Below, piece by piece: positions 879 through 22,680 of a stretch of 40,000 nt of DNA (its first letter is position 1; every line of letters starts with the position of its first letter). The notes below the pieces were generated by a model that was not told the origin of the DNA, searched no databases, and was given only the letters and a program-made list of their open reading frames with translations. This DNA is from Marinobacter piscensis (GTDB taxonomy: Bacteria > Pseudomonadota > Gammaproteobacteria > Pseudomonadales > Oleiphilaceae): the NCBI RefSeq assembly GCF_007671655.1, contig NZ_VCGX01000001.1, positions 613,917 to 653,916 on the forward strand, in the 5' to 3' direction. The position numbers and the translations under genes are program-made.

Positions 879-934
879 GCAACGCACTTGCATGCGCATA
901 GTCATGCGCATAATCTATTGCTAAGTGTGTTACT
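879..934 (-). repeat. Putative degenerate terminal attC (distal end of array)
   Basis: GCAACGCACTTGCA...TGCTAAGTGTGTTAC. AAC/GTT ends flank CACTTGCA paired with TGCTAAGTG (one bulged base). Both 7-bp cores deviate from consensus. Confidence 0.35.
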
Positions 935-950
935 GCAACTGGAGGCTAAA

Positions 951-1196
951 ATGGCCGATCTATACAACACAGCCGCCCCAAAAAAAGCCGCAAACTTGTC
1001 GGTTAACAGCGACTTGCTGGAAAAGACACGCGCTCTGAACATTAACCTGTCTGCGACCCTTGAGCGAGCACTGAAAGAAGAATTAGCAAAGCACAAGGCT
1101 GACCAGTGGGTAGAGGAAAACCGGACAGCAATCAAAAGCTACAACGAGTTCGTCGAACAGCACGGCTGTTTCGGGGACGAATTTCGGGAGTTTTGA
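951..1196 (+). CDS. ccdA: CcdA-family antitoxin
   Basis: The 81-aa protein ...NLSATLERALKEELAKHKADQWVEENRTAIKSYNEFVEQHGCFGDEFREF matches the CcdA pattern. Its stop overlaps the ccdB ATG (TGATG). Confidence 0.7.
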   Translation: MADLYNTAAPKKAANLSVNSDLLEKTRALNINLSATLERALKEELAKHKADQWVEENRTAIKSYNEFVEQHGCFGDEFREF

Positions 1197-1513
1197 TGGC
1201 TCAGTTCGACGTTTATCCAAACCCGAGCAAAATCAGTAAGACGCATTACCCGTACCTAGTGGATGTTCAAAGCCCTCTTCTGACCGATCTCGCAACTCGT
1301 ATCGTCATTCCGCTGGGCAAGCGTTCGGCATTCGGCGGCCAAGCCATGCAAGGGCTAACACCAGAAATAACCTTTGCGGATCAGGAACTGCTGTTGCTGA
1401 CACCTCAAATTTCTTCAGTGCCTGAAAAACAGCTGAAGAATCCAATTGGTTCCCTATCGCATTTCAGAGACCAGATTGTTGGAGCTCTGGATTTTGCAAT
1501 CACTGGCATTTAA
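1196..1513 (+). CDS. ccdB: CcdB-family toxin (gyrase poison family)
   Basis: The 105-aa protein MAQFDVYPNP...YLVDVQS...RIVIPL...ITGI is collinear with F-plasmid CcdB. Its stop TAA is the TAAC of the next attC. Confidence 0.8.
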   Translation: MAQFDVYPNPSKISKTHYPYLVDVQSPLLTDLATRIVIPLGKRSAFGGQAMQGLTPEITFADQELLLLTPQISSVPEKQLKNPIGSLSHFRDQIVGALDFAITGI

Positions 1514-1583
1514 CGCTGCGCGCGCCGGTGGCCTTTTTGGAGCAGCGCGGAGAAAAGGCCATCCGCGTGGCGCGACTTGTTAT
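1511..1583 (-). repeat. attC site (non-class-A)
   Basis: + strand TAACGCTGCGCGCGCC...GGCGCGACTTGTTAT; GC-rich imperfect palindrome between the cores. Confidence 0.75.
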
Positions 1584-1635
1584 GGGGTGAAACATACTGC
1601 ATCATTTAGCTATGTCTATCTCCACGGGATGTAAA

Positions 1636-1872
1636 ATGACAGCGATCGAGCTCGAAGCCCTCAGAAATGCTGCCATGATGCTCTCCGAACAGGAGCGCGC
1701 CGCTTTAGCCAAAGATCTGGTGGCAAGCCTGGATGGCCCTGCAGATGAAGGTGTTGCCGAAGCGTGGGACCGTGAAATTCGCCGAAGAATTCAGCAGATT
1801 GATTCGGGAGAAGCAGAGCTTCTTGACGCAAAGGAAGTCCTGTCCCGCGCCAGAGATCGTATCAGGGGCTGA
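1636..1872 (+). CDS. Addiction-module antitoxin (Unstab_antitox-like)
   Basis: MTAIELEALRNAAMMLSEQERAALAKDLVASLDGPADEGVAEAWDREIRRRI... is the typical pattern of the putative addiction module component family. It lies 5 nt upstream of a RelE/ParE-like ORF. Confidence 0.6.
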   Translation: MTAIELEALRNAAMMLSEQERAALAKDLVASLDGPADEGVAEAWDREIRRRIQQIDSGEAELLDAKEVLSRARDRIRG

Positions 1873-1877
1873 TAATT

Positions 1878-2188
1878 TTGAAAGTAAGAGTTAGCAGGGA
1901 AGCTGCAACAGAATTGGAAGAAGCCTCTTCGTGGTATGAGCAGGAAGAAGTAGGGCTTGGAGAGCGCCTGATCAATGCGTTTGAACAAGCATTAAAGCTG
2001 CTTGTGGAACCAAATCCCCCATTGGTTCCAGTCCCGCATAAAGCGGCAGAATCCGGGGCAAAACAGCTCATTCTTCATGGATTCCCTTTCTCGCTCGTAA
2101 CATCCAAAGAAACCAAACTTTCATAGTCGTTGCTTTTGCCCACCACTCAAGAAAACCGGGCTACTGGCGAAAACGGATTACGCCATAA
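1878..2188 (+). pseudogene. RelE/ParE-family toxin interrupted by a frameshift
   Basis: Frame 0 (1878-2126) gives ...LILHGFPFSLVTSKETKLS*. Frame 2 continues ...TFIVVAFAHHSRKPGYWRKRITP*, the conserved toxin C-terminus, ending in the attC TAA at 2186-2188. The shift falls in the A-rich run around 2105-2120. Confidence 0.55.
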
Positions 2189-2247
2189 CGCCAGTGGTAA
2201 TGAGCGACGACGCAGCGCAGTTGGCGTCCCGTTGACCACCTTGTTAT
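2186..2247 (-). repeat. attC site (non-class-A; paralogous to the 4522 site)
   Basis: TAACGCCAGTGGTAATGAGCGACGACGCAGCGCAGTTGGCG...CTTGTTAT; the left half is near-identical to attC 4522-4581. Confidence 0.8.
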
Positions 2248-2256
2248 ATATTCACT

Positions 2257-2712
2257 TTATTTGAACGTACAGCGATTTGGTAATTCATTTTTTATGTATT
2301 CAGGGATGTCACTTTGAAAAACCAAGTAACTGCTTCCTTTGGCAGAAACTTCAATTTTTATGTGCTTTCTACCGCCACCAAGATAGTACTCCCCCCAACT
2401 TGGCCTCTTTTTGTAAACACGCCCTGTAATGTATAACTTTTCCTCTTCTTCAACAATCTTCATTGGGCTAGTTATTTTCTCCGGCAATAAAAATCCATTG
2501 ATGCCATTTTCAACCAAGAAAGGAGTATCGGCACTGTCATCATTGGCGCCCCCTATAGACCATATATATGCTCGATTTTCATGCAACTCTTTAAAAAAAC
2601 CCTTAACGTTTTGATTGAAGGCGGGGAAGCATTCTGCCTCTATTTCTTGGTTGCTAAACGTCGCAGAACAGCCTGCAAAAAAAATTATGGGTAGAACACT
2701 ATAAATTTTCAC
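2257..2712 (-). CDS. Hypothetical lipoprotein (cassette gene)
   Basis: 151-aa ORF with signal peptide plus lipobox MKIYSVLPIIFFAGC. AT-rich relative to its flanks and fills one cassette. Confidence 0.6.
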   Translation of the reverse strand: MKIYSVLPIIFFAGCSATFSNQEIEAECFPAFNQNVKGFFKELHENRAYIWSIGGANDDSADTPFLVENGINGFLLPEKITSPMKIVEEEEKLYITGRVYKKRPSWGEYYLGGGRKHIKIEVSAKGSSYLVFQSDIPEYIKNELPNRCTFK

Positions 2713-2734
2713 CTTAAAACCATCCCTGGATATA

Positions 2735-2804
2735 TAACGAGGCCATCACCGGTGCCAAAACCGGCGCGAAGCAGAGGTTTTGGCACCGGTGATGGCCTCG
2801 TTAT
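2735..2804 (-). repeat. attC site (long perfect-stem class, paralogous to the 17411 site)
   Basis: TAACGAGGCCATCACCGGTGCCAAAACC...GGTTTTGGCACCGGTGATGGCCTCGTTAT; long near-perfect palindrome. Confidence 0.85.
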
Positions 2805-3124
2805 GCAGCATCTAGCGGCTTAATCCGGTCTACTTCGTCCTTAACCGACTGAGCCGCCGTCCAAAGATCAACAGATCGCTGCGCATTCAGCCAGAACTCT
2901 GGAGAGTTGCCAAACAAGCGGGCAAGTCGAAGCGCCATTTCCGGACTGACAGCACGGCGCTCACGTAGTAATTCATTCACTGACTGGCGAGAGACACCCA
3001 GAGATTCAGCCAACCCCTTAACAGTCAGGTCATAGTCCGGCAGGAAATCTTCTCGCAGCATTTCACCGGGGTGAGTCGGCTTGCGCTGCATGCCGACAGT
3101 ATTAGGAATAGCCATAGTCATCAC
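2801..3124 (-). CDS. higA: HigA-family antitoxin (XRE HTH)
   Basis: ...THPGEMLREDFL...LTVKGLAESLGVSRQSVNELLRERRAVSPEMALRLARLFGNSPEFWLNAQ is the HigA pattern. It lies downstream of higB. Start is uncertain (3115-3124). The stop sits in the attC core. Confidence 0.8.
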   Translation of the reverse strand: MMTMAIPNTVGMQRKPTHPGEMLREDFLPDYDLTVKGLAESLGVSRQSVNELLRERRAVSPEMALRLARLFGNSPEFWLNAQRSVDLWTAAQSVKDEVDRIKPLDAA

Positions 3125-3129
3125 CTCAC

Positions 3130-3411
3130 TCAGTGGTAGTCACACACTTCGACCTCATACGCATCACCATCTTCAAAACGAAAACAGATGCGCCACTGAT
3201 CATTTATTGAAATTGCGTGCTGCCCCTGCCTATTTCCCGACAACGGGTGGAGGCGATTGCCAGGCGGCACTTTCAAGTCCTCCAGCTGTACGGCCAGATT
3301 CACATATTCAAGTTTTCTGGCAGCTCTCGATGCGACATCCGCAGGAAACTTCTTTGACTTGCCTTTGGAGTACAGTTTTTGAGTTCGTTTGTCAGCGAAG
3401 GATTTGATCAT
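3130..3411 (-). CDS. higB: HigB-like toxin (RelE/ParE superfamily, plasmid maintenance killer type)
   Basis: The 93-aa protein MIKSFADKRTQKLY...LHPLSGNRQGQHAISINDQWRICFRFEDGDAYEVEVCDYH is the canonical HigB pattern, with toxin-first gene order. Confidence 0.8.
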   Translation of the reverse strand: MIKSFADKRTQKLYSKGKSKKFPADVASRAARKLEYVNLAVQLEDLKVPPGNRLHPLSGNRQGQHAISINDQWRICFRFEDGDAYEVEVCDYH

Positions 3412-3467
3412 GCATCGAAGCGTAACATGTCACGTGACGCGTTTCAACGTGACTTGGAGTGACTGCA

Positions 3468-3533
3468 TAACGCTCAGCGTAATCGGCCGGTTTTGGAGCG
3501 TCAGTGGAAAAGTCCGGTTGACCGCCTTGTTAT
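3468..3533 (-). repeat. attC site (non-class-A)
   Basis: TAACGCTCAGCG...CCGGTTGACCGCCTTGTTAT. Confidence 0.75.
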
Positions 3534-3552
3534 GTGGTTGATTCAACTGGAT

Positions 3553-3795
3553 TCACGATTCGATGCCAATTAGGGAGTCGATGCCTTCATCCCTTATGGT
3601 CGCTTTAGCCTCGTCCAGAGCTGCAGCATCTGTATCGAACTCGTCATCCCATACAGTGGAGTTATTGAACTCATCCACCACTTCGAGAATCCAGCCACCG
3701 GTGTCACCACGGTAGATATCCACTTTGACCGTTTTCCCATCAACCGTCAGTTCCTGGCAAAGGGGACTCATCTCGATCTCAAAATCATCTTCCAT
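3553..3795 (-). CDS. Hypothetical small acidic protein (cassette gene)
   Basis: 80-aa ORF, very D/E-rich (MEDDFEIEM...VWDDEFDTDAAALDEA...). It is the sole ORF of its cassette. Confidence 0.5.
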   Translation of the reverse strand: MEDDFEIEMSPLCQELTVDGKTVKVDIYRGDTGGWILEVVDEFNNSTVWDDEFDTDAAALDEAKATIRDEGIDSLIGIES

Positions 3796-3827
3796 TCACT
3801 ATCTCCGGGATAGAGTCTTTGTACACA

Positions 3828-3900
3828 TGACGCTGAGCGCACCGGTGACTTTGGCGTAGCGAAGCGGAGACAAAGGCATCCGAGTGCCGCGCCTGGTTAA
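3828..3900 (-). repeat. attC site with mutated R' core (GTC instead of GTT)
   Basis: + strand reads TGACGCTGAGCGC...GCCTGGTTA. Every other site has TAAC/AAAC here; this one has TGAC, i.e. GTCA on the cassette strand. Confidence 0.7.
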
Positions 3901-3901
3901 A

Positions 3902-4186
3902 TTACGATCGTTCACCTTCAAGGCCATGCCATACCCGGAGAATGATGATGGCACTGGCATGAAGTGAGTATCGAACGACGTATTTTCCGAAAACCATATC
4001 TCGAACAGAGTCTGGCACCGGTGCCATTTCAACGGGTGTGCCCATTTTGGGGAAGTCTGGGAGCAGTCCGATTTTGCCAACCAACTCGGCGGCAATCTTG
4101 GCTGCCGCCGATGAATTGTGGACTTCAATGAACTCCCTCAAACGTTTCAGATCTTCGATGGCTTCATCCGTGTAAACCAGTTTCAC
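3902..4186 (-). CDS. ParE/RelE-family toxin
   Basis: The 94-aa protein MKLVYTDEAIEDLKRLREFI...YVVRYSLHASAIIILRVWHGLE is the ParE pattern. It overlaps the upstream antitoxin stop by 4 nt. Confidence 0.75.
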   Translation of the reverse strand: MKLVYTDEAIEDLKRLREFIEVHNSSAAAKIAAELVGKIGLLPDFPKMGTPVEMAPVPDSVRDMVFGKYVVRYSLHASAIIILRVWHGLEGERS

Positions 4187-4455
4187 TTACCTGACCTCGG
4201 TGCATCCTGCTCGCTCTCGGCTCCCCAACTATTAAGCCAGCTATGAACCTCGCTGGCATCAACAACCTTGCCTTGGGCGGCAGACTCCATTGCCTCTAAC
4301 GTTTGTTTCCACCGCTCTTGCTCAAGCTGCTGCTTTTCTATGTATTCCGACAATGCCTGGTTGATTACCCAACCTTTGCTCCGGTGCAGCCTGCCGGCGA
4401 TTGCTTCCAGGTGCTGTTCAACTTCTGCGCGGAGGCGAACTGTGGTGACACTCAT
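4183..4455 (-). CDS. Ribbon-helix-helix (CopG-like) antitoxin
   Basis: MSVTTVRLRAEVEQHLEAIAGRLHRSKGWVINQALSEYIEK... is an RHH N-terminus. The ATG at 4455 is the first in-cassette start. Confidence 0.65.
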   Translation of the reverse strand: MSVTTVRLRAEVEQHLEAIAGRLHRSKGWVINQALSEYIEKQQLEQERWKQTLEAMESAAQGKVVDASEVHSWLNSWGAESEQDAPRSGK

Positions 4456-4521
4456 GACTATACCCTCGAATTTACGACTACAACGTATTACAGCATAGTC
4501 GATGAGGTTGCGGCAAAAATT

Positions 4522-4581
4522 TAACGCTAGTGGTAATGGGCGACGACGCAGCGCAGTTGGCGAACTTGAACGATTGGTTAT
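4522..4581 (-). repeat. attC site (paralogous to the 2186 site)
   Basis: TAACGCTAGTGGTAATGGGCGACGACGCAGCGCAGTTGGCG...GATTGGTTAT. Confidence 0.8.
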
Positions 4582-4618
4582 ACATAAGGCTACCACCCCC
4601 ACCAATGCCAAACCTTGG

Positions 4619-4864
4619 CTACACCGCGCCAGACACCCCCGAGAATAGACGGGAAAAGTCGCGGGAGCAGCAACGCCAACACAGCAAAACCCAAAACACA
4701 GAAAATGAGGTAACGACTGCTAAGAAAGCCATCCCAGTAAACGGCCAACTCCAAATTGGCCCAGAGCCAAACGCATGCTGCCGTTGGGACAGAGAAAAAC
4801 AGCGATGCAAAAGGCTGATCAACCTTATTTCAATTGGCCCATCTTGGCCGCGATTCCTTGCCAT
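4619..4864 (-). CDS. Possible small membrane protein (weak call)
   Basis: 81-aa ORF and the only one contained in cassette 4582-4887. It has a hydrophobic stretch MAFLAVVTSFSVFWVLLCW but no good SD. Confidence 0.25.
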   Translation of the reverse strand: MARNRGQDGPIEIRLISLLHRCFSLSQRQHAFGSGPIWSWPFTGMAFLAVVTSFSVFWVLLCWRCCSRDFSRLFSGVSGAV

Positions 4865-4887
4865 GATCTATGAATATTCCTTGTGTA

Positions 4888-4966
4888 TAACGCTTGCAGC
4901 ATGCGCGCCCACGGAATGGAGCCGAAGGCGCAATGTAGTGGGCGTCGCCGTGCCTGCACTGGTTAG
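4888..4966 (-). repeat. attC site, class A (79-bp family)
   Basis: TAACGCTTGCAGCATGCGCGCCCACGGAATGGAGCCGAAGGCGCAATGTAGTGGGCGTCGCCGTGCCTGCACTGGTTAG. Confidence 0.9.
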
Positions 4967-5508
4967 GCATGCCCACGTCTATTCTCATCGTTGAAGGCCA
5001 AATGGAGCTTGGAAGCCGGAAACTCTCGCTTCGATAAAAACGCATTCCAGAGGTCTTGGCAGTAAAGGTTGGGCCAGAGGTAGTTTGTGATATGTATGTG
5101 AGAGCCGCCGCACCAATGGTTGCCTTTGTCGTAAAGCTCGTCCATTTCAAAAAACACCATGTGCCATTCACTCAAAGGATGCTGAGTCTCTCGAGAAAAA
5201 AACATGTGGGCCACTTTATACTTCCGCTCGCCATGTGTTTTGAACAAACGGCGAAATGCTTTCTGGCCTTCTGGCGATGCCTGAACCTCACTGCTGGCAT
5301 CCAGAATGTCAAAGTCACTCTCTCGCGTTTCTAAGTGCTCTGGAACGTAGTCGAAAAAGCTCATCGTGTGATTCAGGTGGAGCGCTCCAGCTTTGCAGGC
5401 AATTATCACGTCTACGAAATCGCTGCTCTCGACAGTCAGCGACTTGCATAGCTGCTTCAATTCCTTTTTATCCTGACACATCAGAACTTTCGCGAAGGTG
5501 TTCTCCAT
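4963..5508 (-). CDS. Hypothetical protein (cassette gene)
   Basis: 181 aa from the ATG at 5508, preceded by GAGGA at 5 nt. The stop TAA lies in the attC R'' core. No recognisable family. Confidence 0.55.
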   Translation of the reverse strand: MENTFAKVLMCQDKKELKQLCKSLTVESSDFVDVIIACKAGALHLNHTMSFFDYVPEHLETRESDFDILDASSEVQASPEGQKAFRRLFKTHGERKYKVAHMFFSRETQHPLSEWHMVFFEMDELYDKGNHWCGGSHIHITNYLWPNLYCQDLWNAFLSKREFPASKLHLAFNDENRRGHA

Positions 5509-5525
5509 CCGAATCCTCGATTGCC

Positions 5526-5592
5526 TAACGCCTTGGCTTTGCGGCGTGCCGGAGCGCCAGCGTAGGCGCGTCCGACAACAGCCACTGGTTAA
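5526..5592 (-). repeat. attC site (non-class-A)
   Basis: TAACGCCTTGGC...CAGCCACTGGTTAA. Confidence 0.75.
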
Positions 5593-5882
5593 GCTGCTTC
5601 GAAGTCCAAGGGATGAATGCCATCCAGATTGACCGTATTGCGGGCCACCCAAAGATCGTACATGTCCTGCATCGCCAACCAGCTCTCAGGAGTACGCCCG
5701 AGAACCTTGGACAGCCGCAAAGACATTTCAGGGCTAATGCCACTATCCCCTTTGAGCAGCCGAGACAAAGTAGAAGGTGAAACGCCCAGACTGGAAGCAA
5801 GCTGACGAGAGCTGATACCGAAAGGCTCCAGGTACACCTCGCGAATGAATTCACCAGGATGCGGCGGATTATGCATAGTCAT
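5589..5882 (-). CDS. higA: HigA-family antitoxin (XRE HTH)
   Basis: [72 protein letters not shown]. Its ATG overlaps the higB stop by 1 nt. Confidence 0.8.
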
Positions 5883-6160
5883 TAGTGATAATCCTCATAA
5901 TCAAGAATGTAGGCGTTGCCGTCCTGGAATTCGAACGTCATGCGCCAATTTCCGTTAACCCTAATCGACCACCGGCCTTTGTCTTTACCCTTCAATGAAT
6001 GAAGCCGAAAACCAGGGATATCCATGTCTTCCACTGAAGTCGCCGTATCCAGAGCAGCCAGCTGCATACGCAGCTTCGTGGCATGGTCGGGTTGTATGCC
6101 AGACGTGTGGCCGGTCGAATAAAACCGCTTCAGTCCTTTGTGACGGAATGATTTAATCAT
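5882..6160 (-). CDS. higB: HigB-like toxin
   Basis: [14 protein letters not shown]...[40 protein letters not shown]; a paralog of the 3130-3411 gene. Confidence 0.8.
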
Positions 6161-6202
6161 GAGGGAATGCTAGCATGTTGCGCATCACGCAACAATAGAG
6201 CT

Positions 6203-6295
6203 TAACGCTGTTGTTTAGCGGCGGCTACGGAGCGCAGCATAGTAGGCGTCCGGTGTAGGGCCGTCGGCCCGGAACGTACTACAACTACTGGTTAG
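6203..6295 (-). repeat. attC site (long class with GGCGTCCGG core)
   Basis: TAACGCTGTTGTTTAGCGGCGGC...GGCGTCCGGTG...CTACTGGTTAG, 93 bp. Confidence 0.8.
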
Positions 6296-6556
6296 AAGCC
6301 GGCTCACCCGTTGGTTCCAGCCCTAATGCTCGGCTCGCATGCGAACTCCAAAGAAGCCCCGCACCTGCTCGCGATCCGGCACCGATACAAACTACCAGAC
6401 TACCCGGCGCGTTTGGAATTTTCGGCGAATTGCCCCGTAACCTGAACACCGAGTTGCCCACCAAAACCGATGCATTACTGGCGGCTGTGTTTTGCCCGAA
6501 AACAACTGCTAAAACGCGGTCAAACACCAAACCCAACAGCGATGAAGCCAGGCATA
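6296..6556 (-). other. ORF-poor cassette, family member 1 of 4
   Basis: 261-bp cassette. The only long frame starts inside the neighbouring attC. It shares sequence modules with cassettes 14881-15222, 18047-18352 and 18438-18776. Confidence 0.5.
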
Positions 6557-6652
6557 TAACGCTGAGCTTAGCGGCGACCTTGGAATGAAGGCGAAGCCGC
6601 AATGTAAAGGGCGTCCGGCGGACATCGGCCGCGTACTACAGCGACTTGTTAA
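6557..6652 (-). repeat. attC site (long class; paralogous to the 15836 site)
   Basis: TAACGCTGAGCTTAGCGGCGACCTTGGAATGAAGGCGAAGCCGCAATGTAAAGGGCGTCCGGCGG...CGACTTGTTAA. Confidence 0.85.
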
Positions 6653-6654
6653 AT

Positions 6655-6709
6655 TTATCTCTTGCCGTAGTATGCATTAAGCAATTTCGCATCATCCTCA
6701 CAGAAGTGC
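6655..6709 (-). pseudogene. 3' fragment of the cassette gene split by IS66 (5' part at 9137-9536)
   Basis: Removing the IS and one copy of AGAAGTGC restores the frame ...IVRKRQHF-CEDDAKLLNAYYGKR*, with the stop at 6655-6657. Confidence 0.75.
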
Positions 6710-6724
6710 GTAAGCGGCCGGTGA

Positions 6725-8269: not shown

Positions 8270-8344
8270 GTCGCCCAGTATGCCAAGTCCCTGTGCGGCA
8301 AGCGATTCGCGGTTCTGGCTATAGCGGCACCATGGCACTTGTGG

Positions 8345-14794: not shown

Positions 14795-14798
14795 GGCA

Positions 14799-15813: not shown

Positions 15814-15835
15814 AGGAGCGACCCATCAAAGAACA

Positions 15836-15932
15836 TAACGAATGAGCTTAGCGGCGACCTTGTAATGGAGGCGTAGCCGCAATGAAAAGGGCGTCCGGCG
15901 GCCATCGGCCGCGTACTACAGCGACTTGTTAA
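15836..15932 (-). repeat. attC site (long class; paralogous to the 6557 site)
   Basis: TAACGAATGAGCTTAGCGGCGACCTTGTAATGGAGGCGTAGCCGCAATGAAAAGGGCGTCCGGCGG...CGACTTGTTAA. Confidence 0.85.
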
Positions 15933-15935
15933 AAG

Positions 15936-16229: not shown

Positions 16230-16248
16230 GGGGTCTATCCTTACCTTT

Positions 16249-16302
16249 TAACGCCTCAAACACCGGCGCCGTTCACGGCGTCCGAGTGCTTTGACTTGTT
16301 AG
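16249..16302 (-). repeat. attC site (short, 54 bp), translated as the C-terminus of the upstream ORF
   Basis: TAACGCCTCAAACACCGGCGCCGTTCACGGCGTCCGAGTGCTTTGACTTGTTAG. Confidence 0.7.
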
Positions 16303-16963: not shown

Positions 16964-16983
16964 TCTGATTCTCCTAGTACAGC

Positions 16984-17062
16984 TAACGCTTGCAGCATGC
17001 GCGCCTACGAAATGAAGCCGAAGGCGCAATGTAGTAGGCGTCGCCGTGCCTGCACTGGTTAA
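16984..17062 (-). repeat. attC site, class A
   Basis: Class A sequence, variant ...CCTACGAAATGAAGCC. Confidence 0.9.
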
Positions 17063-17070
17063 GCGCTGAA

Positions 17071-17385
17071 CTACAGGCCACGTTCGATAGCTTGTTTTAT
17101 AACCGGAGCCACAGTTTCCGGTGTGATGCCTCGGTCCTGACAATATCTAGTTTGCAGCCATACGGATAGCTGCTTTTGTCCTTTGCTCGCATTGCAGCCG
17201 CAACAGCAAAGGGCGATATTTTCTCTGGTTATGATGCTGGCATCGTTGATGATGTGCTCCCAGCTTGCCGCTGACTTTCTTGAAACTTTCACGGAGGTAA
17301 ACTCATTGCGACAATAAACGCATTCCGTATCTCGCGCTCGGATCTCTTTCTCCAGACCGTCCGGAATATTCCAGTTATTTGCCAT
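17071..17385 (-). CDS. HNH endonuclease (small, stand-alone)
   Basis: 104-aa ORF. ...ECVYCRNEF...ASWEHIINDASI...IALCCCGCNASKGQK is the canonical HNH CxxC...H...N...CxxCNxSK motif. Confidence 0.75.
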   Translation of the reverse strand: MANNWNIPDGLEKEIRARDTECVYCRNEFTSVKVSRKSAASWEHIINDASIITRENIALCCCGCNASKGQKQLSVWLQTRYCQDRGITPETVAPVIKQAIERGL

Positions 17386-17410
17386 TGCTCGAACTTACCT
17401 TTTTACCGCT

Positions 17411-17483
17411 TAACGCCAGCCATCACCGGTGGCAAAACCGGCGCGAAGCAGAGGTTTTGGCATCCGGTGCATGGCTTGGTTAT
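17411..17483 (-). repeat. attC site (paralogous to the 2735 site)
   Basis: TAACGCCAGCCATCACCGGTGGCAAAACCGGCGCGAAGCAGAGGTTTTGGCATCCGGTGCATGGCTTGGTTAT. Confidence 0.85.
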
Positions 17484-17947
17484 GCGCTCTCTCGGATGGC
17501 ACGGATATCCTCGATATCCACCGGCCGTGAGAGTGCAGATTTATACCGGACTAGATCCTCTTTCAGCATAAGGGGAAGCTCTAAGCCCAGCAAATTGACT
17601 GTTTTATAGCGAGAGAAATCTATGTTGAGCGGAACCCACGTCTCGCTGCCCGCATCAAAGATTCGCGGACCGTCAGCGCTACCTACCTCCACTTTAATGC
17701 CTTCATACGTGAACTGGACGTAGGTTAGGTCCCAACCTTCCTCCTGACGGTGAGCGGCTGCCTTGGATACAAATTCCTGACCATCCTGAACCACTGACGA
17801 AAAGTGTTTGCCAGGGACGAAAAGGTCGAGGTCATTCAGGTCACGCTCAGAGCCATATCCCTTAGCAGCGAGTCCCCCACAGATCAGAAAAGGGATATTC
17901 CTATTTCTGAGTAACCCCACAATCCATTGGGCTGCCAAATGATGCAC
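17480..17947 (-). CDS. Pol-beta-superfamily nucleotidyltransferase-fold protein (cassette gene)
   Basis: ...FLICGGLAAKGYGSERDLNDLDLFV... fits the hGG-x13-DhD nucleotidyltransferase motif. A GTG start at 17947 follows AAAGGAGGAGG; the ATG at 17977 lies inside the attC. Confidence 0.55.
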   Translation of the reverse strand: MHHLAAQWIVGLLRNRNIPFLICGGLAAKGYGSERDLNDLDLFVPGKHFSSVVQDGQEFVSKAAAHRQEEGWDLTYVQFTYEGIKVEVGSADGPRIFDAGSETWVPLNIDFSRYKTVNLLGLELPLMLKEDLVRYKSALSRPVDIEDIRAIRESA

Positions 17948-17965
17948 GCCTCCTCCTTTTGCGCA

Positions 17966-18046
17966 TAACGCCTGCATAAACGGCGCCCGACTAGGGCGTC
18001 CGGTGGACGGCCGTCAGGCCGGGAACGAATTTGATGCACTGGTTAG
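17966..18046 (-). repeat. attC site (GGCGTCCGG class)
   Basis: TAACGCCTGCATAAACGGCGCCC...GGGCGTCCGGTGGACGGCC...GATGCACTGGTTAG. Confidence 0.8.
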
Positions 18047-18352
18047 AAGCCGGTTCACCCGCTAGTTCCAGCCCTACTTCTCGGCTCGCATGCGAACTCC
18101 AAAGAAGCCACGCACCAGTTCACGGTCAGACACCGATACAAAGCACTAATCTATCCCCCTTACCCGGAACTTTCGGCGAACAGCCCCACAACCAGGGCAC
18201 GCGGCCGATAACCCGTAAAAATTCGATGCCAGCTACCAAATTAGACGACGGTTTTGCTGGCCTTGGCCATGACCTATAAACAGAAATGACCACCCAATTT
18301 GCCGCCAAGGCCCTGCGCCCAGCCACCAAAAAACTACCAAAGCCTTGGCTTA
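18047..18352 (-). other. ORF-poor cassette, family member 3 of 4
   Basis: The first ~70 nt (18047-18116) are about 91% identical to 6296-6365. The frame that is open in member 1 carries in-frame TGA codons here. Confidence 0.5.
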
Positions 18353-18437
18353 TAACGCGAAGGTAACCGGCGCCGGAGCGCCAGCGGAGGGAACCAAAAG
18401 CGGTACGCTTTTGGCGTCCGGTTGACCGGCTGGTTAG
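18353..18437 (-). repeat. attC site (non-class-A)
   Basis: TAACGCGAAGGTAACCGGCGCC...GGCGTCCGGTTGACCGGCTGGTTAG. Confidence 0.75.
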
Positions 18438-18776
18438 TGGCGGGTTTTGACGCTGCCTGCTCCCTGGCACTGACCATGACGGCCTACTCCGTTACCTCGC
18501 ACCGGCTGGCGCCGATACCGTTTGTTTGAAACCACCGCCAAGCATGCGGTGGATGGACCTGAACTCAAAGGTACCAGATCCTCACTAAAATTTCGGCGGA
18601 CGGCCCAAAACGACGAATGCCGAACTCACTACCAACACCGTTGCTGATTGAAGCAACCAACTCCGACGCGGACTCTGACGGCCTTGGTGCTCACCAGATT
18701 AAGCGGGTTTGGCTGCCAAGCCCGGCACCAAGGCCACTGGCACACAGCCACCCAAAAGGACCGAAGCCTTTGCCAT
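18438..18776 (-). other. ORF-poor cassette, family member 4 of 4
   Basis: 339 bp containing only short interrupted frames. It starts with the same GGCTTCGGT..TTTTGGGTGG module and carries a TCCGCCGAAA motif. Confidence 0.45.
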
Positions 18777-18855
18777 TAACGCTTGCAGCATGCGCGCCTG
18801 CGGAATGGAGCCGAAGGCGCAATGTAGTAGGCGTCGCCGTGCCTGCACTTGTTAA
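18777..18855 (-). repeat. attC site, class A (identical to 10045-10123)
   Basis: Base-for-base the same as the copy at 10045-10123. Confidence 0.9.
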
Positions 18856-19178
18856 CCATACTTGATGGCTAGCAAAGTTGCCGACACCAACGCTGCAGTG
18901 ATGAACGGCACCAAAAATGTGAGCAAGGAGACTCGATACTCTTTTACCGACTGATAAACCCAATAAGCAGCAATGAAGAAACAAGCCACGCCTACACCGT
19001 GGGCCCACTTGCCCGAAAACTCTGCAAGCTCCAAGCGCCCGGGAAGTGTCATATTGTCAAAATAAAAAGCCACCACGCCGGCAATTACGAACACGAAGCA
19101 GAGCAAGCCATTAATTACCGATAAACTCCGACGGTAGTGGCCTGACTCTCTAATGACCGGATCAAACTTCCACAACAC
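18852..19178 (-). CDS. Small membrane protein (cassette gene, copy 2 of 2)
   Basis: Identical to 10120-10446 at a constant offset of 8732 bp. Confidence 0.55.
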   Translation of the reverse strand: MLWKFDPVIRESGHYRRSLSVINGLLCFVFVIAGVVAFYFDNMTLPGRLELAEFSGKWAHGVGVACFFIAAYWVYQSVKEYRVSLLTFLVPFITAALVSATLLAIKYG

Positions 19179-19204
19179 ACAGCTCTCCAAGTTGCCAAAG
19201 TGGT

Positions 19205-19302
19205 TAACGCTTGCATAAACGGCGGCTTTTGCGCAGCGAAGCGGAGAAAAAGCCGTCCGGTGGAGGGCCATCGGCCCGGAACGAATTTAATGCACTGGTT
19301 AT
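19205..19302 (-). repeat. attC site (long, GCCGTCCGG class)
   Basis: TAACGCTTGCATAAACGGCGGC...GCCGTCCGGTGGAGGGCC...AATGCACTGGTTAT, 98 bp. Confidence 0.8.
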
Positions 19303-19940
19303 GTGTATCTATTTAGTATGATTTTCGCATAACCTGCGGCAAAGCGTTCATAATGAGCGTCATTCGGCACGAGAGTTTTATCATTAACAATAATTTCTGG
19401 AGCTTCCCTATCTATTTTGAATTCAAATCCATTAACGTCGAAACCGATTTCCGGGACTACACACCCATCATTTGGCGTATTTGCGATAAATACTTTAGTG
19501 CTTTCTATAAATAAAGAAACGACATCAACAAAGTCTTCAACCGAATTTTTTTCTGGAAAGTGAAACTCGTGCTCTATTAGGTTTCGCTCTTTGTTTAGCT
19601 TGCTTAAAATCCTTGGAGTAATAACTCCCAACCCTTCCAGATACCCTAGCTTAGAGGGAATATTCCATTTCTTTTTCTTGGAAACCGCTCGCATTCCAAT
19701 GCAATACAGAATCTCTTCGATACGGCAATCGAGAGCCCTCTTCGCGTTTGATAACGCATTCACAAGGTTACGCTTTTCTTTACCTAGCAAATCCTTCTCT
19801 GAAAACTCCAAATACTCTTTAGAGCTTACAGGGATTGGAAACTCTATCCGCTCCTCAATCTCGTTATCCATGATATCCACGCTATCACCCTCGAGAAGTG
19901 TCAGCATATCTTCAACCGTTTTATAGCAATCGCTTTCCAA
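19299..19940 (-). CDS. Hypothetical protein with HEPN-like RNxxxHxF motif (cassette gene)
   Basis: A TTG start at 19940 is preceded by GAGGAG at 7 nt; an alternative ATG at 19958 lies within the R' core. ...LSKLNKERNLIEHEFHFPEKNSVEDF... is an R-N-x3-H signature. AT-rich. Confidence 0.4.
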   Translation of the reverse strand: MESDCYKTVEDMLTLLEGDSVDIMDNEIEERIEFPIPVSSKEYLEFSEKDLLGKEKRNLVNALSNAKRALDCRIEEILYCIGMRAVSKKKKWNIPSKLGYLEGLGVITPRILSKLNKERNLIEHEFHFPEKNSVEDFVDVVSLFIESTKVFIANTPNDGCVVPEIGFDVNGFEFKIDREAPEIIVNDKTLVPNDAHYERFAAGYAKIILNRYT

Positions 19941-19957
19941 GCTAACTCTCCTCAACA

Positions 19958-20036
19958 TAACGTTTGCAGCATGCGCGCCCACGGAATGGAGCCGAAGGCG
20001 CAATGTAGTGGGCGTCGCTGTGCCTGCACTGGTTAT
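19958..20036 (-). repeat. attC site, class A
   Basis: Class A sequence, variant TAACGTTTGCAGC... Confidence 0.9.
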
Positions 20037-20042
20037 ACAGTG

Positions 20043-20666
20043 TTAGAAGAACACCTGCTCTGTCACGATTACACCAGCGACCTTTTTGTAAAACGGCTTT
20101 TCGCGATCATCACAGAGTTTGATGAAGGACTTATAGGTTGCAGGCTTAGTGAAAAGCAAAGTTACTTCTTCAAGGTTGAATTCATAGTCACCTTTTATCC
20201 TCCATTCCCGCTCATGAGTCCAATCTTTGAAAGACTCATCCTCGCTTATGTCGAAATTGACTATGCGCCACCACTCAGTGTCAGGAAGGTATTTCTTGGC
20301 TTCAGATGTCTTATCGTAAATTACGGGACGCCCGCCTTTTCGGTATATTTTCTGTTTGTGGAACAAGAAACCTGATGGAACATAACGCTTTTTTACTTGC
20401 TCACCGCTTTCTCGCAGCTTTTGCTCAAACCAGCAGTTCTGAGCTACAGCATGTACAGGAGCGTCCTGAAAGCAAACAGCGCGGCTTTTTCCGACGATGA
20501 ATCCCTTCTCAGTACTGCTACCGCGCAGAAGTTGTTCGTCGAGAATTTTAAACATTACCTCGACGATCTTACTGTTGGAAGGCGCTTTTGTAAGATGAAC
20601 AAGACTCGTAGAAAGGTCTGTACGTTCCGAGTAGCGACGCCTCCAACTATCTTTTGTATACGGCAA
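20043..20666 (-). CDS. AbiGi-like protein (abortive-infection antitoxin family resemblance; cassette gene)
   Basis: A TTG start at 20666 is preceded by AAGGGAG at 7 nt. ...SLVHLTK...AVCFQDAPV...YRKGGRPVIY...WTHEREWRIKGDY... recalls, from memory, the conserved blocks of AbiGi-family proteins. Confidence 0.45.
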   Translation of the reverse strand: MPYTKDSWRRRYSERTDLSTSLVHLTKAPSNSKIVEVMFKILDEQLLRGSSTEKGFIVGKSRAVCFQDAPVHAVAQNCWFEQKLRESGEQVKKRYVPSGFLFHKQKIYRKGGRPVIYDKTSEAKKYLPDTEWWRIVNFDISEDESFKDWTHEREWRIKGDYEFNLEEVTLLFTKPATYKSFIKLCDDREKPFYKKVAGVIVTEQVFF

Positions 20667-20689
20667 CTGAGCACTCCCTTGAATCTGTA

Positions 20690-20768
20690 TAACGCCAGCA
20701 GCATGCGCGCCCTTGAAATGGAGCCGAAGGCGCAATGTAAAGGGCGTCGCCGTGCCTGCATTGGTTAT
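20690..20768 (-). repeat. attC site, class A (first attC of the array)
   Basis: Class A sequence, variant TAACGCCAGCAGCATGCGCGCCCTTGAAATGG... Confidence 0.9.
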
Positions 20769-21322
20769 GCTTTTGCTTCAGACCGGTAACGTCGTGCATC
20801 AGTAATAAACCACTCTAACATTTGCCAGTGATCTAGTTTTGTAGCCTCATTGCCCATGCTTTTCCGAATTTCCAGCAGAAACTTCCCGACAAGCGAAATC
20901 ATCTCTACGATCTCATTCTCGGAGGGCGTTACACCCTGCTGCTCTCCGCGCTGGAAAAAGTATTGCATTAGGTCATTGTATGATGTGACCACGCTCTCGG
21001 AGCCAACAAGTGACATCTTGAATGCCTTTCTTCGATACTCCTGAGAAAGTAACTTCTGTTGCGCTATTTGATTTTTTTCGCGGGATTTATTTTTGGGATC
21101 TGACTTCCAGGCTGCATCTGAGGTGAAGAGGATTACGAACGGCTCAAGAATATCATTGTAGGTCTCGATTCGGTCGTCTCTGAGCTTATCTTCCAGCTGA
21201 AACTGCCTATCTAGACCGACCCTTATCCTCCAACCTATTCCGCTAAGTATCAGAACCAATATGGGAGTAGCGATGGCCCCTATTGCCGTGACCACTTCAA
21301 GCCAATTCGCACTATCTTCCAT
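20765..21322 (-). CDS. Hypothetical single-pass membrane protein (first cassette, attI-proximal)
   Basis: 185 aa: an N-terminal TM (VVTAIGAIATPILVLILSGIGW) followed by a helical soluble domain. AAGGAGAG lies 5 nt before the ATG at 21322. Confidence 0.6.
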   Translation of the reverse strand: MEDSANWLEVVTAIGAIATPILVLILSGIGWRIRVGLDRQFQLEDKLRDDRIETYNDILEPFVILFTSDAAWKSDPKNKSREKNQIAQQKLLSQEYRRKAFKMSLVGSESVVTSYNDLMQYFFQRGEQQGVTPSENEIVEMISLVGKFLLEIRKSMGNEATKLDHWQMLEWFITDARRYRSEAKA

Positions 21323-21340
21323 GAACTCTCCTTCTTAGAG

Positions 21341-21375
21341 CATAACAGCTAATTATACGAACGAGTTCGTATATC
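21341..21375 (-). other. attI recombination site (core GTTATG plus adjacent palindrome)
   Basis: Minus strand reads TATACGAAC-TC-GTTCGTATAATTAGCT-GTTATGC, then the SD and ATG of cassette 1. It is the last GTTRRRY core before intI. Confidence 0.7.
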
Positions 21376-21399
21376 ACTCATTCGTAAAACCCCATTCAA
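21371..21399 (-). promoter_or_regulatory. Candidate cassette promoter (Pc-like) reading into the array
   Basis: Minus strand reads TTGAAT-17 nt-TGATAT. The -10 abuts the attI palindrome. Weak hexamers. Confidence 0.25.
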
Positions 21400-21597
21400 A
21401 CCCGTTCGAAAGAACAGGATTTCCTGCAATAAAACAAACCTTTAAGCAACAAACACCATGGCTACCGCCAGAGTTATACGCCCTCTTTTGAGCCACTCCC
21501 ACTCTAGCCAGGGGCGTATAATTCCACCTTTCCTGTTGCTACTTTTGAACCCTATCAGATAGTTACCTTCTTTTCTCGGGCGAGTTCTGACGTTTTG

Positions 21598-21613
21598 CGA
21601 ACACGTTCGTATA
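21598..21613. promoter_or_regulatory. Second copy of the CGAAC-NN-GTTCGTATA palindrome, upstream of the intI promoter
   Basis: CGAACACGTTCGTATA here versus CGAACGAGTTCGTATA at 21358-21373. Confidence 0.35.
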
Positions 21614-21634
21614 ACTCCACTAATCGACAGCCTC

Positions 21635-21676
21635 TTGACTTTAGCGACAACCGTTATACTGTATATAAAAACAGCA
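21635..21676 (+). promoter_or_regulatory. intI promoter region with LexA (SOS) box
   Basis: TTGACT (-35) at 21635-21640. CTGTATATAAAAACAG at 21659-21674 matches the gammaproteobacterial CTG-N10-CAG LexA box and covers the -10/+1 region, 13 nt before the intI start. Confidence 0.75.
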
Positions 21677-21687
21677 CTTAAGGATCA

Positions 21688-22680
21688 GTGGATATGGATA
21701 TCCCTACCCCCATACCGACACAGCCAACCCGTTTTTTAGATAAAGTTCGGGCCTTTATACGTCTGAGAGGCATGGCGTATAAAACAGAGAAAACCTACCT
21801 ATTCTGGATCAAGCGCTTTATCCGCTTCCATGGCCGCCGGCACCCTGAAACTATGGGCTCTGCAGAAGTTGAAGCATTTTTGTCTCATCTGGTTTTGCAG
21901 GCAAACGCAAGCGCCTCCACTCAGAGAGTCGCTTTGAATGCCCTGATATTTTTATATCGGGAATTTCTTGGCCATCCTTTAGATGACCTGAACTTCAAAC
22001 ACTCCAAAAAGCCAGTGAAGCTTCCAACCGTCTTCAGTGCGGAAGAAGCAAGATCCGTTATTGGCAATCTGAACGGAGACTACAAGCTTGTTGCCATGCT
22101 TCTCTATGGTTCTGGCCTGCGTATCAACGAAGCACTGCGTTTGAGAGTTAAAGACGTAGATTTTAATATGCAGCAATTGATTGTCCGTAGCGGCAAAGGC
22201 GCTAAAGATCGCATTACGCTGCTTCCGGATCGCCTCGTTGAGCCGTTAAAACAACAAATTGATTCAGCGCTGCACCAGCACCAGGCAGATCTTTTGAAAG
22301 GGTCTGGCTCCGTATATCTTCCCGCGGGCCTGGCACGTAAATATCCGAATGCCAGTCAGGAGCCGGGCTGGCAATATATCTTTCCCGCACAGGAGCTTTC
22401 AAAGGATCCTCGTTCAGGTATTAGCAGGCGACATCATTTAATGGACCGAACAGTTCAAAAACATTTTCGTCACGCTATCCAGGCTGCCGGAATCCGCAAG
22501 CTCGCGGGCAGTCATACTTTTCGCCACAGTTTTGCCACGCGCCTGCTAGAAACTGGCTATGATATTCGCACCATTCAGAAGCTCCTCGGCCACTCAGATA
22601 TACGCACCACAGAAATCTACACCCATGTTGTTCACAAAGGTGGTTTTGGTGTTCGCAGCCCGGTGGACGAGGGCTTCTGA
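21688..22680 (+). CDS. intI: Integron integrase IntI (tyrosine recombinase)
   Basis: 330-aa ORF with the IntI-specific insertion ...[37 protein letters not shown]... and the catalytic region ...[39 protein letters not shown]... The start is GTG 21688 or ATG 21694. Confidence 0.95.

Follow-up and report, generated by a model that had tools for sequence, protein, structure and literature searches.

A large, well-preserved sedentary chromosomal integron in Marinobacter piscensis

Organisation of the locus

The analysed DNA (the window) is a stretch of 40,000 nucleotides (nt) from Marinobacter piscensis, corresponding to positions 613917-653916 of a 1.24-Mb contig (C2) in a genome of 3.34 Mb and 10 contigs. 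It holds a gene for an integron integrase (intI), an adjoining attachment site (attI) and an array of 32 gene cassettes, each of which ends in an attC site. The array occupies 20.5 kb (614.8-635.3 kb on contig C2) and, with 32 cassettes, exceeds the approximately 20 by which large arrays of sedentary chromosomal integrons are recognised. The ribonucleotide reductase genes nrdB and nrdA lie on the integrase side, and a DsbA-like gene is located at the far end. The coordinates of all features are collected in Table 1. We are highly confident that positions 877-22680 represent a complete, well-preserved sedentary chromosomal integron of Marinobacter, with every testable element of this kind of system being present. 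An earlier interpretation of the same DNA, made from its letters and referred to here as the sequence-only reading, had proposed a chromosomal (super)integron and not a mobile resistance integron; the integrase, attI, the 32 attC sites, the synteny with nrdBA and the length of the contig all back this proposal.

The integron integrase

The profile scores assigned the intI product to the integron integrases. The protein reached 429.5 bits on the NCBIfam model TIGR02249 'integron integrase' (cut-off 265), whereas the XerC and XerD equivalog models gave 123.5 and 126.6 bits, far under their cut-offs of 335 and 330. The choice between IntI and XerC/D, which the sequence-only reading had set as a check, was thus decided in favour of IntI. 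A full-length alignment (297 bits) was obtained with VchIntIA of Vibrio cholerae (PDB 2A3V), the integrase structure that was solved with a folded attC. The family-specific insertion recognised earlier aligned without gaps with its VchIntIA counterpart, and the catalytic R, K, HxxR, H and Y were all present. An identity of 87-94% was observed to the integrases beside cassette arrays in M. salexigens, M. maritimus, M. litoralis, M. aromaticivorans and M. metalliresistant CuT 6. The gene is the sole integron integrase of the genome, which encodes two Xer-like recombinases elsewhere.

Shorter intI matches were observed in two related loci (compared loci are numbered here with the prefix L). The match covers residues 1-268 in L012 (L012:4256-5059, a Marinobacter metagenome-assembled genome) and residues 1-171 in L016 (L016:140-652, M. 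salexigens HJR7), with approximately 4.5 kb between its end and nrdB in both cases. The integrase is interrupted or truncated in these two loci.

The attC sites

An initial script, which searched for TAAC...GTTA pairs around a stable fold, returned approximately 30 sites, all within 1.5-20.8 kb of the window. The most frequent type was a family of 84 nt (11 copies, 92% mean column identity), the other 21 sites being more diverse. A covariance model built from these 11 copies detected 13 sites of other types at E < 0.01, all on the + strand inside the array, and brought out a 49-nt site (14163-14211) that the script had missed. In total, 32 sites of 49-103 nt were identified, 30 of them clear and two degenerate (877-935 and 4519-4583). 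A second model, built from all 32 sites, recovered exactly those 32 in the window, which is circular; its 113 further sites in 14 related Marinobacter loci, all on the intI strand and upstream of intI, are not. Outside 877-20770, neither model gave a hit at E < 0.1 in the 40-kb window. Elsewhere in the genome, attC matches were limited to a 4-site cluster on contig C3 and one weak site beside an orphan attI, both of which are described below.

The distance from intI to the first attC is 918 base pairs (bp), and successive sites are at most 2.9 kb apart, the widest gap falling in a cassette that bears an insertion sequence (IS), so that the spacing stays below the 4 kb that IntegronFinder uses for a 'complete integron'. 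The sequence-only reading had counted 31 clear sites and one degenerate site, all in one orientation and spaced 0.3-0.9 kb apart. Its total and its orientation (32 of 32) stand, while the split is 30 and two; the spacing is also correct in general, with cassettes of 354-970 bp (median 584), but one cassette measures 2988 bp with its IS. It had proposed the attC covariance model of IntegronFinder as a check; the covariance models used here, which were made from sites of the window, call the sites.

The alignment of the 32 sites displayed the architecture of attC, which is defined by R'' and R' boxes (RYYYAAC and GTTRRRY), unpaired spacers and a paired stem with extrahelical bases on one arm, with more conservation in structure than in sequence. 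In the TAAC and GTTA boxes, the bases C, G, T, T and A were invariant and the others nearly so, and the unpaired spacers measured approximately 5 nt. Compensatory changes were found in 8 of the 12 consensus pairs, comprising all of the stem pairs, and the four R-box pairs were essentially invariant. Of the cells in these pairs, 96.5% were paired; shuffling of the columns reduced this to 70%, and sliding of the 3' partner by 1-3 columns to 24-45%. Per-site free-energy z-scores (DNA parameters) were noisy, and covariation was relied on instead. In eight sites an extra hairpin was present above the conserved lower stem, which we interpret as a variable terminal structure with branches, as in the Vibrio repeats, and not as a new feature.

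The distribution of unpaired bases on the + strand was uneven, with 341 on the 3' arm against 160. In canonical attC sites (aadA7 and the V. cholerae repeat, VCR) it is the 3' arm of the bottom strand that carries the extrahelical bases. By this polarity, the + strand is the recombining bottom strand of all 32 sites, and reading of the cassettes proceeds on the - strand, divergently from intI, which is the rule in all integrons.

A further property of cassettes was observed at their boundaries. IntI cuts between the G and the TT of R', and the last six bases of a physical site belong to the neighbouring cassette. R'' is therefore expected to be complementary to the start of its own cassette and not to the other end of the same site. 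The variable triplet of R'' matched the first bases of its own cassette in 26 of the 32 cassettes (with the attI coordinate corrected by one base) and the other end of the same physical site in none (0/32), the maximum in 20,000 permutations being 10. The exceptions were terminal, degenerate or IS-adjacent cassettes.

These results bear on the possibility that no integron is present and that REP-like (repetitive extragenic palindromic) or terminator-like repeats happen to lie beside a Xer-type recombinase. The repeats do resemble REP elements in being imperfect palindromes that are rich in GC and intergenic. Within the 40-kb window, however, they are confined to the array, and they combine TAAC...GTTA boxes with one common polarity, stems that covary and agreement with the triplet rule, beside a recombinase that passes TIGR02249 and stays at 124-127 bits on the XerC/XerD models (cut-offs of about 330). 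The profile scores, the stem covariation and the triplet rule refute this explanation, to which we attach practically no probability.

Two groups of unusual sites were also observed. The attC at 2732-2806 is an almost perfect palindrome of 75 nt (-61 kcal/mol, RNA parameters) that lacks both bulges and an unpaired spacer. Its relative at 17408-17485 is a normal attC with bulges, whereas the palindromic site may have lost strand selectivity or excisability. The 49-nt attC of the inverted ParDE cassette and the 48-nt attC of the orphan-attI cassette fall below the usual lower limit for attC of approximately 55-60 nt.

The attI site and the control region

The position of attI was derived by comparison. 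BLAST against the 14 related Marinobacter loci showed an identity of 80-88% at the nucleotide level that starts at 21341-21344 and continues through intI, with the cassette side being unrelated, and in the multiple alignment conservation begins at the TAAC core. Because the homology with the relatives begins there, the crossover was placed at 21345|21346 within GTTATGC. The sequence-only reading was right that an attI is present, its core (GTTATG) being one base off the usual notation.

The spacer between attI and intI contains a LexA box, CTGTATATAAAAACAG. Sites of the form CTGT-N8-ACAG with an AT-rich spacer occur only seven times in the whole genome, including that of intI. Five of the other six precede genes that we take to be recN, recA, dinB, an imuA-like gene and a yebG-like gene, and the remaining one precedes an unidentified open reading frame (ORF) of 135 amino acids (aa). 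Sharing this box with so few sites, mostly before SOS genes, points to intI as a member of the predicted SOS regulon. IntI1 and IntIA are known to be under SOS control.

Other conserved elements were identified in the spacer. On the - strand, a perfect and invariant TATAAT (21352-21357) lies 6 nt from the attI core, with a poor -35 hexamer. Two palindromes, TATACGAACGAGTTCGTATA at 21354-21373 and CGAACACGTTCG followed by TATAAC at 21598-21615, are invariant or nearly so in 11 species. Both have the form CGAAC-N2-GTTCG with TATA extensions, and both are kept in the orphan attI; CGAACNNGTTCG was counted only seven times in the whole genome. The first palindrome overlaps the - strand TATAAT and the second sits 20 bp upstream of the intI -35, and they could be operators of a regulator or accessory IntI sites. 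An inverted repeat (21471-21483 and 21512-21524) is also present in the spacer, for which RNAalifold gave no compensatory changes.

Genomic context and other capture sites

The intI-nrdB-nrdA junction was found to be conserved in eight related loci (L001-L006, L012 and L016). In seven other related loci, intI adjoins orthologues of the imuA region, which in the present genome lies at 85-95 kb of contig C3. The platform has thus changed its neighbours at least once within the genus.

A change of neighbours would also fit a mobile integron on a transposon, island or plasmid that by chance came to lie in the chromosome. Against this, nrdB follows closely on intI, the platform has no transposition genes next to it, eight related loci show the same junction and the contig measures 1.24 Mb. 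Mobile integrons of classes 1-5 are marked by near-identity to IntI1-IntI5 and by a link to a transposon or plasmid, whereas the present integrase is 48.9% identical to IntI1, and the best-scoring 5,000 plasmid records all showed less than 60% identity, with 54.6% for the best of them. An array of 32 cassettes with a dominant host-specific attC family is, furthermore, unlike the short heterogeneous arrays of mobile integrons. We therefore consider a mobile origin very improbable.

The distal flank presented a different picture. A short-chain dehydrogenase/reductase (SDR) gene, the DsbA-like gene and a TonB-dependent receptor gene showed no linkage to the integron in five related genomes, and the array sizes of the relatives are therefore not measurable by anchoring on the DsbA-like gene or the receptor. 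The sequence-only reading had named core genes on both sides. This agrees with the conserved nrdBA junction; the DsbA-like gene is real, but its status as a core gene is not supported, since it is not conserved near the array and was not found at all in four of the five related genomes.

On contig C2, the GC skew of the + strand is negative from position 1 to approximately 680 kb, and the cumulative skew reaches its minimum near 680-700 kb and then rises. The array is therefore located approximately 70 kb from the replication origin, and the + strand, which carries the attC bottom strands, is the leading-strand template. The same arrangement has been described for sedentary chromosomal integrons, in which it keeps excision low (bioRxiv 10.1101/2022.08.03.502626).

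Upstream of the class Ia genes nrdA-nrdB, a cobalamin riboswitch (Rfam RF00174, 91 bits) was identified on the - strand at 26805-27007, the only Rfam match in the window at the gathering threshold. The genome also encodes the B12-dependent NrdJ. A class I ribonucleotide reductase that is switched off when B12 is available is a known logic, with which the riboswitch and NrdJ fit.

A second array, without an integrase, was found on contig C3 (152434-157127; L034:9435-14128). It contains four attC sites, which share one strand, and insertions of the IS30, IS3 and IS110 types lie close by. Among its cargo are a ParA-like ATPase and a protein with a transglycosylase domain. On the upstream side it borders directly on the genes of the class II ribonucleotide reductase (nrdJ), so that both arrays of the genome adjoin ribonucleotide reductase operons. 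In two related genomes, attC hits were located 6-7 kb from nrdJ.

An orphan copy of attI and the spacer was identified on contig C2 (2904-3199; L036:2904-3199). This module of 296 bp is 83% identical to 21343-21637 of the window; it extends from the TAAC core to just short of the intI -35 and has no intI behind it. The one cassette that it leads (L036:1070-2904) contains a 588-aa ORF, which has its own ribosome-binding site, and a 48-nt attC; the ORF is a full-length PADLOC PDC-S71 defence candidate (473 bits). The cassette lies beside fba-pgk and IS elements. The idea that this place marks the integron position of a second clade was rejected, as no relative has fba or pgk adjoining intI.

On the basis of the conserved spacer, one may speculate that it constitutes a Marinobacter-specific control module, in which the palindromes would act as second, non-LexA operators or as distant accessory IntI sites, coupling cassette and integrase expression, and that one integrase may serve the main array, the orphan attI and the nrdJ array. 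We regard this proposal as rather doubtful.

Cassette content and history of the array

Approximately 10 of the 32 cassettes were assigned a Pfam family at or near the cut-off, and about 14 distinct ORFs have no family in Pfam, NCBIfam or PADLOC (Table 1), in line with the earlier statement that most of the cargo has no assignable function. Two specific suggestions of the sequence-only reading were not upheld: cassette 2, described as AbiGi-like, had no profile match, and cassette 11, described as HepT, had a sub-threshold match only. Its description of the cargo as minus-strand ORFs is true of most cassettes, but the genes of cassettes 13, 31 and 32 are on the + strand. Toxin-antitoxin systems are present in six cassettes, namely ParDE (cassette 13), HigBA (cassettes 24 and 29), RHH/ParE (cassette 27), Unstab_antitox with a ParE-like ORF (cassette 31) and CcdAB (cassette 32). 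The PADLOC and NCBIfam scans of the cargo revealed no known defence system or named family beyond a weak PtuB-like HNH match and one sub-threshold Cas13-ApeA match, and no antibiotic-resistance cassette was recognised in the array. Several cassettes have a GC content of 0.39-0.42, compared to approximately 0.53 in the flanks.

Some integron-borne proteins of the GFA family, only a subset of the homologues, have been reported to inactivate fosfomycin (preprint 10.64898/2026.10.07.757220). The GFA protein of cassette 21 has the cysteine pattern and has no arginines at the equivalents of R41 and R43, under an assumed ungapped numbering with a one-residue offset and without an alignment to Gfa173.

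No convincing ORF was found in cassettes 5, 6, 12, 23 and 26. The first four of these form one family (64% mean column identity) with an invariant GGGC.GT.CGCCGA core and GGCCTTGGC/GCCAAGGCC inverted repeats, and counterparts occur in the arrays of M. maritimus and M. aromaticivorans. A search of the array against Rfam at permissive E-values returned no RNA family, the ORF-less cassettes included. Cassette 26, despite its degenerate attC and lack of a convincing ORF, is more conserved across species than most protein-coding cassettes.

Traces of rearrangement were observed at several levels. Cassettes 4 and 20 share an identical block of 438 nt (18773-19210 and 10041-10478) that extends from core to core with no substitutions, as is expected when one copy is excised after replication and then reinserted. 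Seven cassettes have counterparts of 74-96% identity in other species; the homology stops at the boundaries of these cassettes, which occupy different positions in the arrays concerned. Over the 10 kb next to attI, the 14 related species had almost no cassette order in common with this array. A comparison of array content across relatives had been suggested in the sequence-only reading, and it shows that cassettes and their order differ from attI outward among the 14 Marinobacter species.

Cassette 22 is interrupted by an element of the IS66 family (Pfam HTH_Tnp_1, TnpB_IS66 and DDE_Tnp_IS66, the last with 353 bits), which is the only full copy in the genome. It is bounded by inverted repeats of 25 nt (GTAAGCGGCCGGT...) and an 8-bp target duplication (AGAAGTGC) on both sides. 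When the flanks of the element are joined, a 146-aa ORF is restored, which ends just before the attC. A full-length copy with 89.5% identity over 2427 bp was also observed in the integron array of M. maritimus (L003:718-3144).

Table 1. Positions of the integron, its cassettes and neighbouring features in the window. Cassettes are numbered from attI outward.
Feature	Position	Strand	Evidence and remarks
intI, integron integrase, 330 aa, intact	21688-22680	+	TIGR02249 and alignment to VchIntIA
Putative intI promoter TTGACT-16-TACTGT	21635-21662	+	8/12 consensus match; both hexamers conserved across species
LexA (SOS) box	21659-21674		Invariant in 11 species; overlaps putative intI -10
attI-intI spacer, ~340 bp	21346-21687		84% mean column identity over 11 species
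attI core GTTATGC	21340-21346	-	Homology break with 14 related loci; complementary to R'' of cassette 1
Cassette 1	20693-21345	-	attC 20687-20770 (84 nt); ORF 20765-21322, 185 aa, N-terminal hydrophobic segment, own GGAG ribosome-binding site; no Pfam, NCBIfam or PADLOC family
Cassette 2	19961-20692	-	attC 19955-20038 (84 nt); ORF 20043-20666, up to 207 aa; no family
Cassette 3	19208-19960	-	attC 19202-19304 (103 nt, extra hairpin); ORF 19299-19958, up to 219 aa; GC 0.42; no family
Cassette 4	18780-19207	-	attC 18774-18857 (84 nt); ORF 18852-19190, 112-aa membrane protein; exact copy of cassette 20
Cassette 5	18356-18779	-	attC 18350-18439 (90 nt); no convincing ORF; ORF-less family
Cassette 6	17969-18355	-	attC 17963-18048 (86 nt, extra hairpin); no convincing ORF; paralogue of cassette 23; 77-79% nt identity to L003 and L005 cassettes
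Cassette 7	17414-17968	-	attC 17408-17485 (78 nt); ORF ending 17480, up to 165 aa; DUF2204 nucleotidyltransferase, PF09970 21.9 bits (cut-off 20.3)
Cassette 8	16987-17413	-	attC 16981-17064 (84 nt); ORF 17071-17385, 104 aa, HNH-like; weak PADLOC PtuB, E = 2e-7; no Pfam at E <= 0.01
Cassette 9	16252-16986	-	attC 16246-16304 (59 nt); ORF 16256-16963, 235 aa; GC 0.39; no family
Cassette 10	15839-16251	-	attC 15833-15934 (102 nt, extra hairpin); ORF 15936-16229, 97-aa membrane protein; 83% nt identity to L005 cassette
Cassette 11	15226-15838	-	attC 15220-15303 (84 nt); ORF 15298-15813, 171 aa; HepT-like sub-threshold, 17.7 bits (cut-off 23.5)
Cassette 12	14802-15225	-	attC 14796-14882 (87 nt, extra hairpin); no convincing ORF; 74% nt identity to L003 cassette, boundaries match
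Cassette 13, genes inverted	14169-14801	+	attC 14163-14211 (49 nt); parD 14259-14498 (ParD_antitoxin 114.8 bits), parE 14498-14794 (ParE_toxin 75.4 bits)
Cassette 14	13659-14168	-	attC 13653-13736 (84 nt); ORF ending 13731, up to 148 aa, membrane protein; DUF4231 sub-threshold
Cassette 15	12689-13658	-	attC 12683-12743 (61 nt, nearly perfect palindrome); ORF 12797-13588, 263 aa; no family
Cassette 16	12009-12688	-	attC 12003-12086 (84 nt); ORF 12081-12668, 195-aa membrane protein; GC 0.40
Cassette 17	11601-12008	-	attC 11595-11672 (78 nt, extra hairpin); ORF 11676-11981, 101 aa; chorismate mutase type II, Pfam CM_2 70.4 bits
Cassette 18	10941-11600	-	attC 10935-11018 (84 nt); ORF 11013-11570, 185 aa; GNAT acetyltransferase, Acetyltransf_3 131 bits
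Cassette 19	10476-10940	-	attC 10470-10547 (78 nt, extra hairpin); ORF 10542-10910, 122 aa; no family
Cassette 20	10048-10475	-	attC 10042-10125 (84 nt); 112-aa membrane ORF identical to that of cassette 4
Cassette 21	9548-10047	-	attC 9542-9625 (84 nt, core TAAAC); ORF 9620-10021, 133 aa; GFA family, Cys-rich zinc, Pfam 98.7 bits
Cassette 22	6560-9547	-	attC 6554-6654 (101 nt, extra hairpin); membrane ORF from 9536, broken near 3' end by IS
IS66-family insertion, 2427 bp	6710-9136	-	tnpA 8677-9054, tnpB 8345-8734, tnpC 6725-8338
Cassette 23	6206-6559	-	attC 6200-6297 (98 nt, extra hairpin); no convincing ORF
Cassette 24	5529-6205	-	attC 5523-5594 (72 nt); higB 5882-6160 (HigB-like_toxin 98.8 bits), higA 5589-5882 (HTH_3); 87-92% nt identity to L001, L002 and L009
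Cassette 25	4891-5528	-	attC 4885-4968 (84 nt); ORF 4963-5508, 181 aa; no family
Cassette 26	4525-4890	-	attC 4519-4583 (degenerate 3' arm); no convincing ORF; 92-96% nt identity to L013 and L002
Cassette 27	3831-4524	-	attC 3825-3902 (78 nt, core TGAC); RHH antitoxin within 4183-4518 (RHH_1 20.4 bits, cut-off 20.5), parE-like 3902-4186 (ParE_toxin 57.9 bits); 88% nt identity to L009
Cassette 28	3471-3830	-	attC 3465-3535 (71 nt); ORF 3553-3795, 80 aa, acidic; no family
Cassette 29	2738-3470	-	attC 2732-2806 (75 nt, bulge-free palindrome); higB 3130-3411 (HigB-like_toxin 65.4 bits), higA 2801-3124 (HTH_3); 88% nt identity to L012
Cassette 30	2189-2737	-	attC 2183-2249 (67 nt); ORF 2257-2712, 151 aa, lipoprotein-like N-terminus; GC 0.40; no family
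Cassette 31, genes inverted	1514-2188	+	attC 1508-1585 (78 nt); antitoxin 1612-1872 (Unstab_antitox 46 bits), short ParE-like ORF 1878-2126 (ParE_toxin 17.7 bits, below cut-off)
Cassette 32, genes inverted, last	883-1513	+	Degenerate attC 877-935; ccdA 951-1196 (CcdA 109 bits), ccdB 1196-1513 (CcdB 113 bits)
nrdB and nrdA	22703-26715	-	Pfam; nrdB 22703-23761, nrdA 23893-26715; integrase-side boundary, nrdB 22 bp after intI
DsbA-like gene	254-838		Pfam DSBA

Preservation and activity of the integron

Several points weigh against the reading of a complete integron. The position of Trp157 in VchIntIA is occupied by Arg in the Marinobacter integrase, and a strict promoter and terminator scan of the attI-intI spacer gave no match, including for a sigma-70 cassette promoter. 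The attC covariance models were built from the window or its own sites and not from an independent curated set. Both strands give a score at 2732-2806 and 12683-12743, where the sites are near-perfect palindromes, and these two, together with the two degenerate sites, may recombine poorly; the degenerate site at 877-935 scored 16.2 bits (E = 0.11) even under a model trained on it and fails the triplet rule. Recombination, transcription and LexA binding are, in addition, all inferred from sequence.

It is conceivable that the integron is structurally complete but frozen, that is, an inherited platform whose integrase no longer moves cassettes to a meaningful extent and whose array is a fossil store. 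The interrupted or truncated integrases of L012 and L016 mean that decay occurs in the genus, and the IS66-family element within cassette 22, the four sub-optimal attC sites and an array orientation that disfavours excision point in the same direction. On the other hand, the intI frame is intact with all of its catalytic positions, the LexA box and spacer are invariant across species, and the R''/R' rule is perfect in 26 of the 32 cassettes. The substitution-free duplicate implies a recent event, and the near absence of a common cassette order next to attI in the 14 relatives also speaks against a frozen state, which we consider quite unlikely. A complete sedentary integron, whose array would still be open to reshuffling, remains the reading that we prefer.

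Proposed mechanism and implications

By analogy with IntI1 and V. cholerae IntIA, DNA damage or incoming single-stranded DNA would lead to cleavage of LexA and to expression of intI. IntI would then bind the folded single-stranded bottom strands of attC and excise cassettes as circles (attC x attC), which it could re-insert at the double-stranded attI (attI x attC), cutting between G and TT. The attI-proximal cassettes would be transcribed from a promoter in the conserved spacer, and distal cassettes would be mostly silent unless they carry a promoter of their own, as is probably the case in the toxin-antitoxin cassettes (six, of which three are inverted) and perhaps in the five ORF-less ones. 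The toxin-antitoxin cassettes would penalise the loss of array segments, and the orientation of the array, with bottom strands on the leading-strand template, would keep excision rare. The array may accordingly be viewed as a stable store of mostly uncharacterised genes that is open to reshuffling under stress.

By type, the integron is ordinary: it is of a known kind, large, intact, neatly delimited and unsurprising, and it offers nothing new on the integron mechanism. Marinobacter integrons are already in the literature, with arrays of M. salexigens as well as a complete integron and a separate array in Marinobacter sp. CuT6 having been described (bioRxiv 10.1101/2024.07.02.601719). Its value is that of a reference for the Marinobacter integron family, as a medium-sized, non-Vibrio example in which all cassette boundaries are given to the base, attI is mapped comparatively and an exact cassette duplicate is a sign of recent activity. 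The practical worth lies in the cargo, with approximately 14 distinct ORFs and five ORF-less cassettes to which no function is assigned. In Vibrio and in mobile integrons, cassettes of a similar kind have proved to be anti-phage defences or promoters.

Comparison with known systems

The V. cholerae superintegron (IntIA/IntI4, VCR) is alike in its full-length homologous integrase with a LexA box at intI, in its large array with one dominant host-specific attC family and ORF-less cassettes, and in the presence of many toxin-antitoxin cassettes, including ccdAB, higBA and parDE, some of them inverted. The attC bottom strands likewise lie on the leading-strand template. It is considerably larger, with approximately 180 cassettes in approximately 130 kb, and the Marinobacter array is less homogeneous, since the dominant 84-nt attC accounts for 11 of the 32 sites and the rest range from 49 to 103 nt. 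The Marinobacter array is also distinguished by its position beside nrdBA, approximately 70 kb from the origin of the apparent main chromosome.

The other Marinobacter integrons and arrays have the closely related IntI (87-94%), the same spacer with LexA box and palindromes, the same attC families and some cassettes in common, and extra integrase-less arrays are found elsewhere in their genomes. They differ in cassette content and order from the attI crossover outward; seven of the loci have intI beside the imuA region, and the present genome additionally keeps an orphan copy of attI that lacks intI. Class 1 mobile integrons (IntI1) share the recombinase family and the logic of cassettes and attC, but besides the distance between the integrases (48.9% identity) the present integron has no Tn402/Tn21 context and no 3' conserved segment, and its array is long with related attC sites.

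In the superintegrons of Vibrionaceae, gene-less cassettes carry promoters (Blanco et al., 2024; PMC11014356). Cassettes 5, 6, 12, 23 and 26 of the Marinobacter array likewise have an attC and no convincing ORF, and four of them form a family that is conserved in other species and has no Rfam match.

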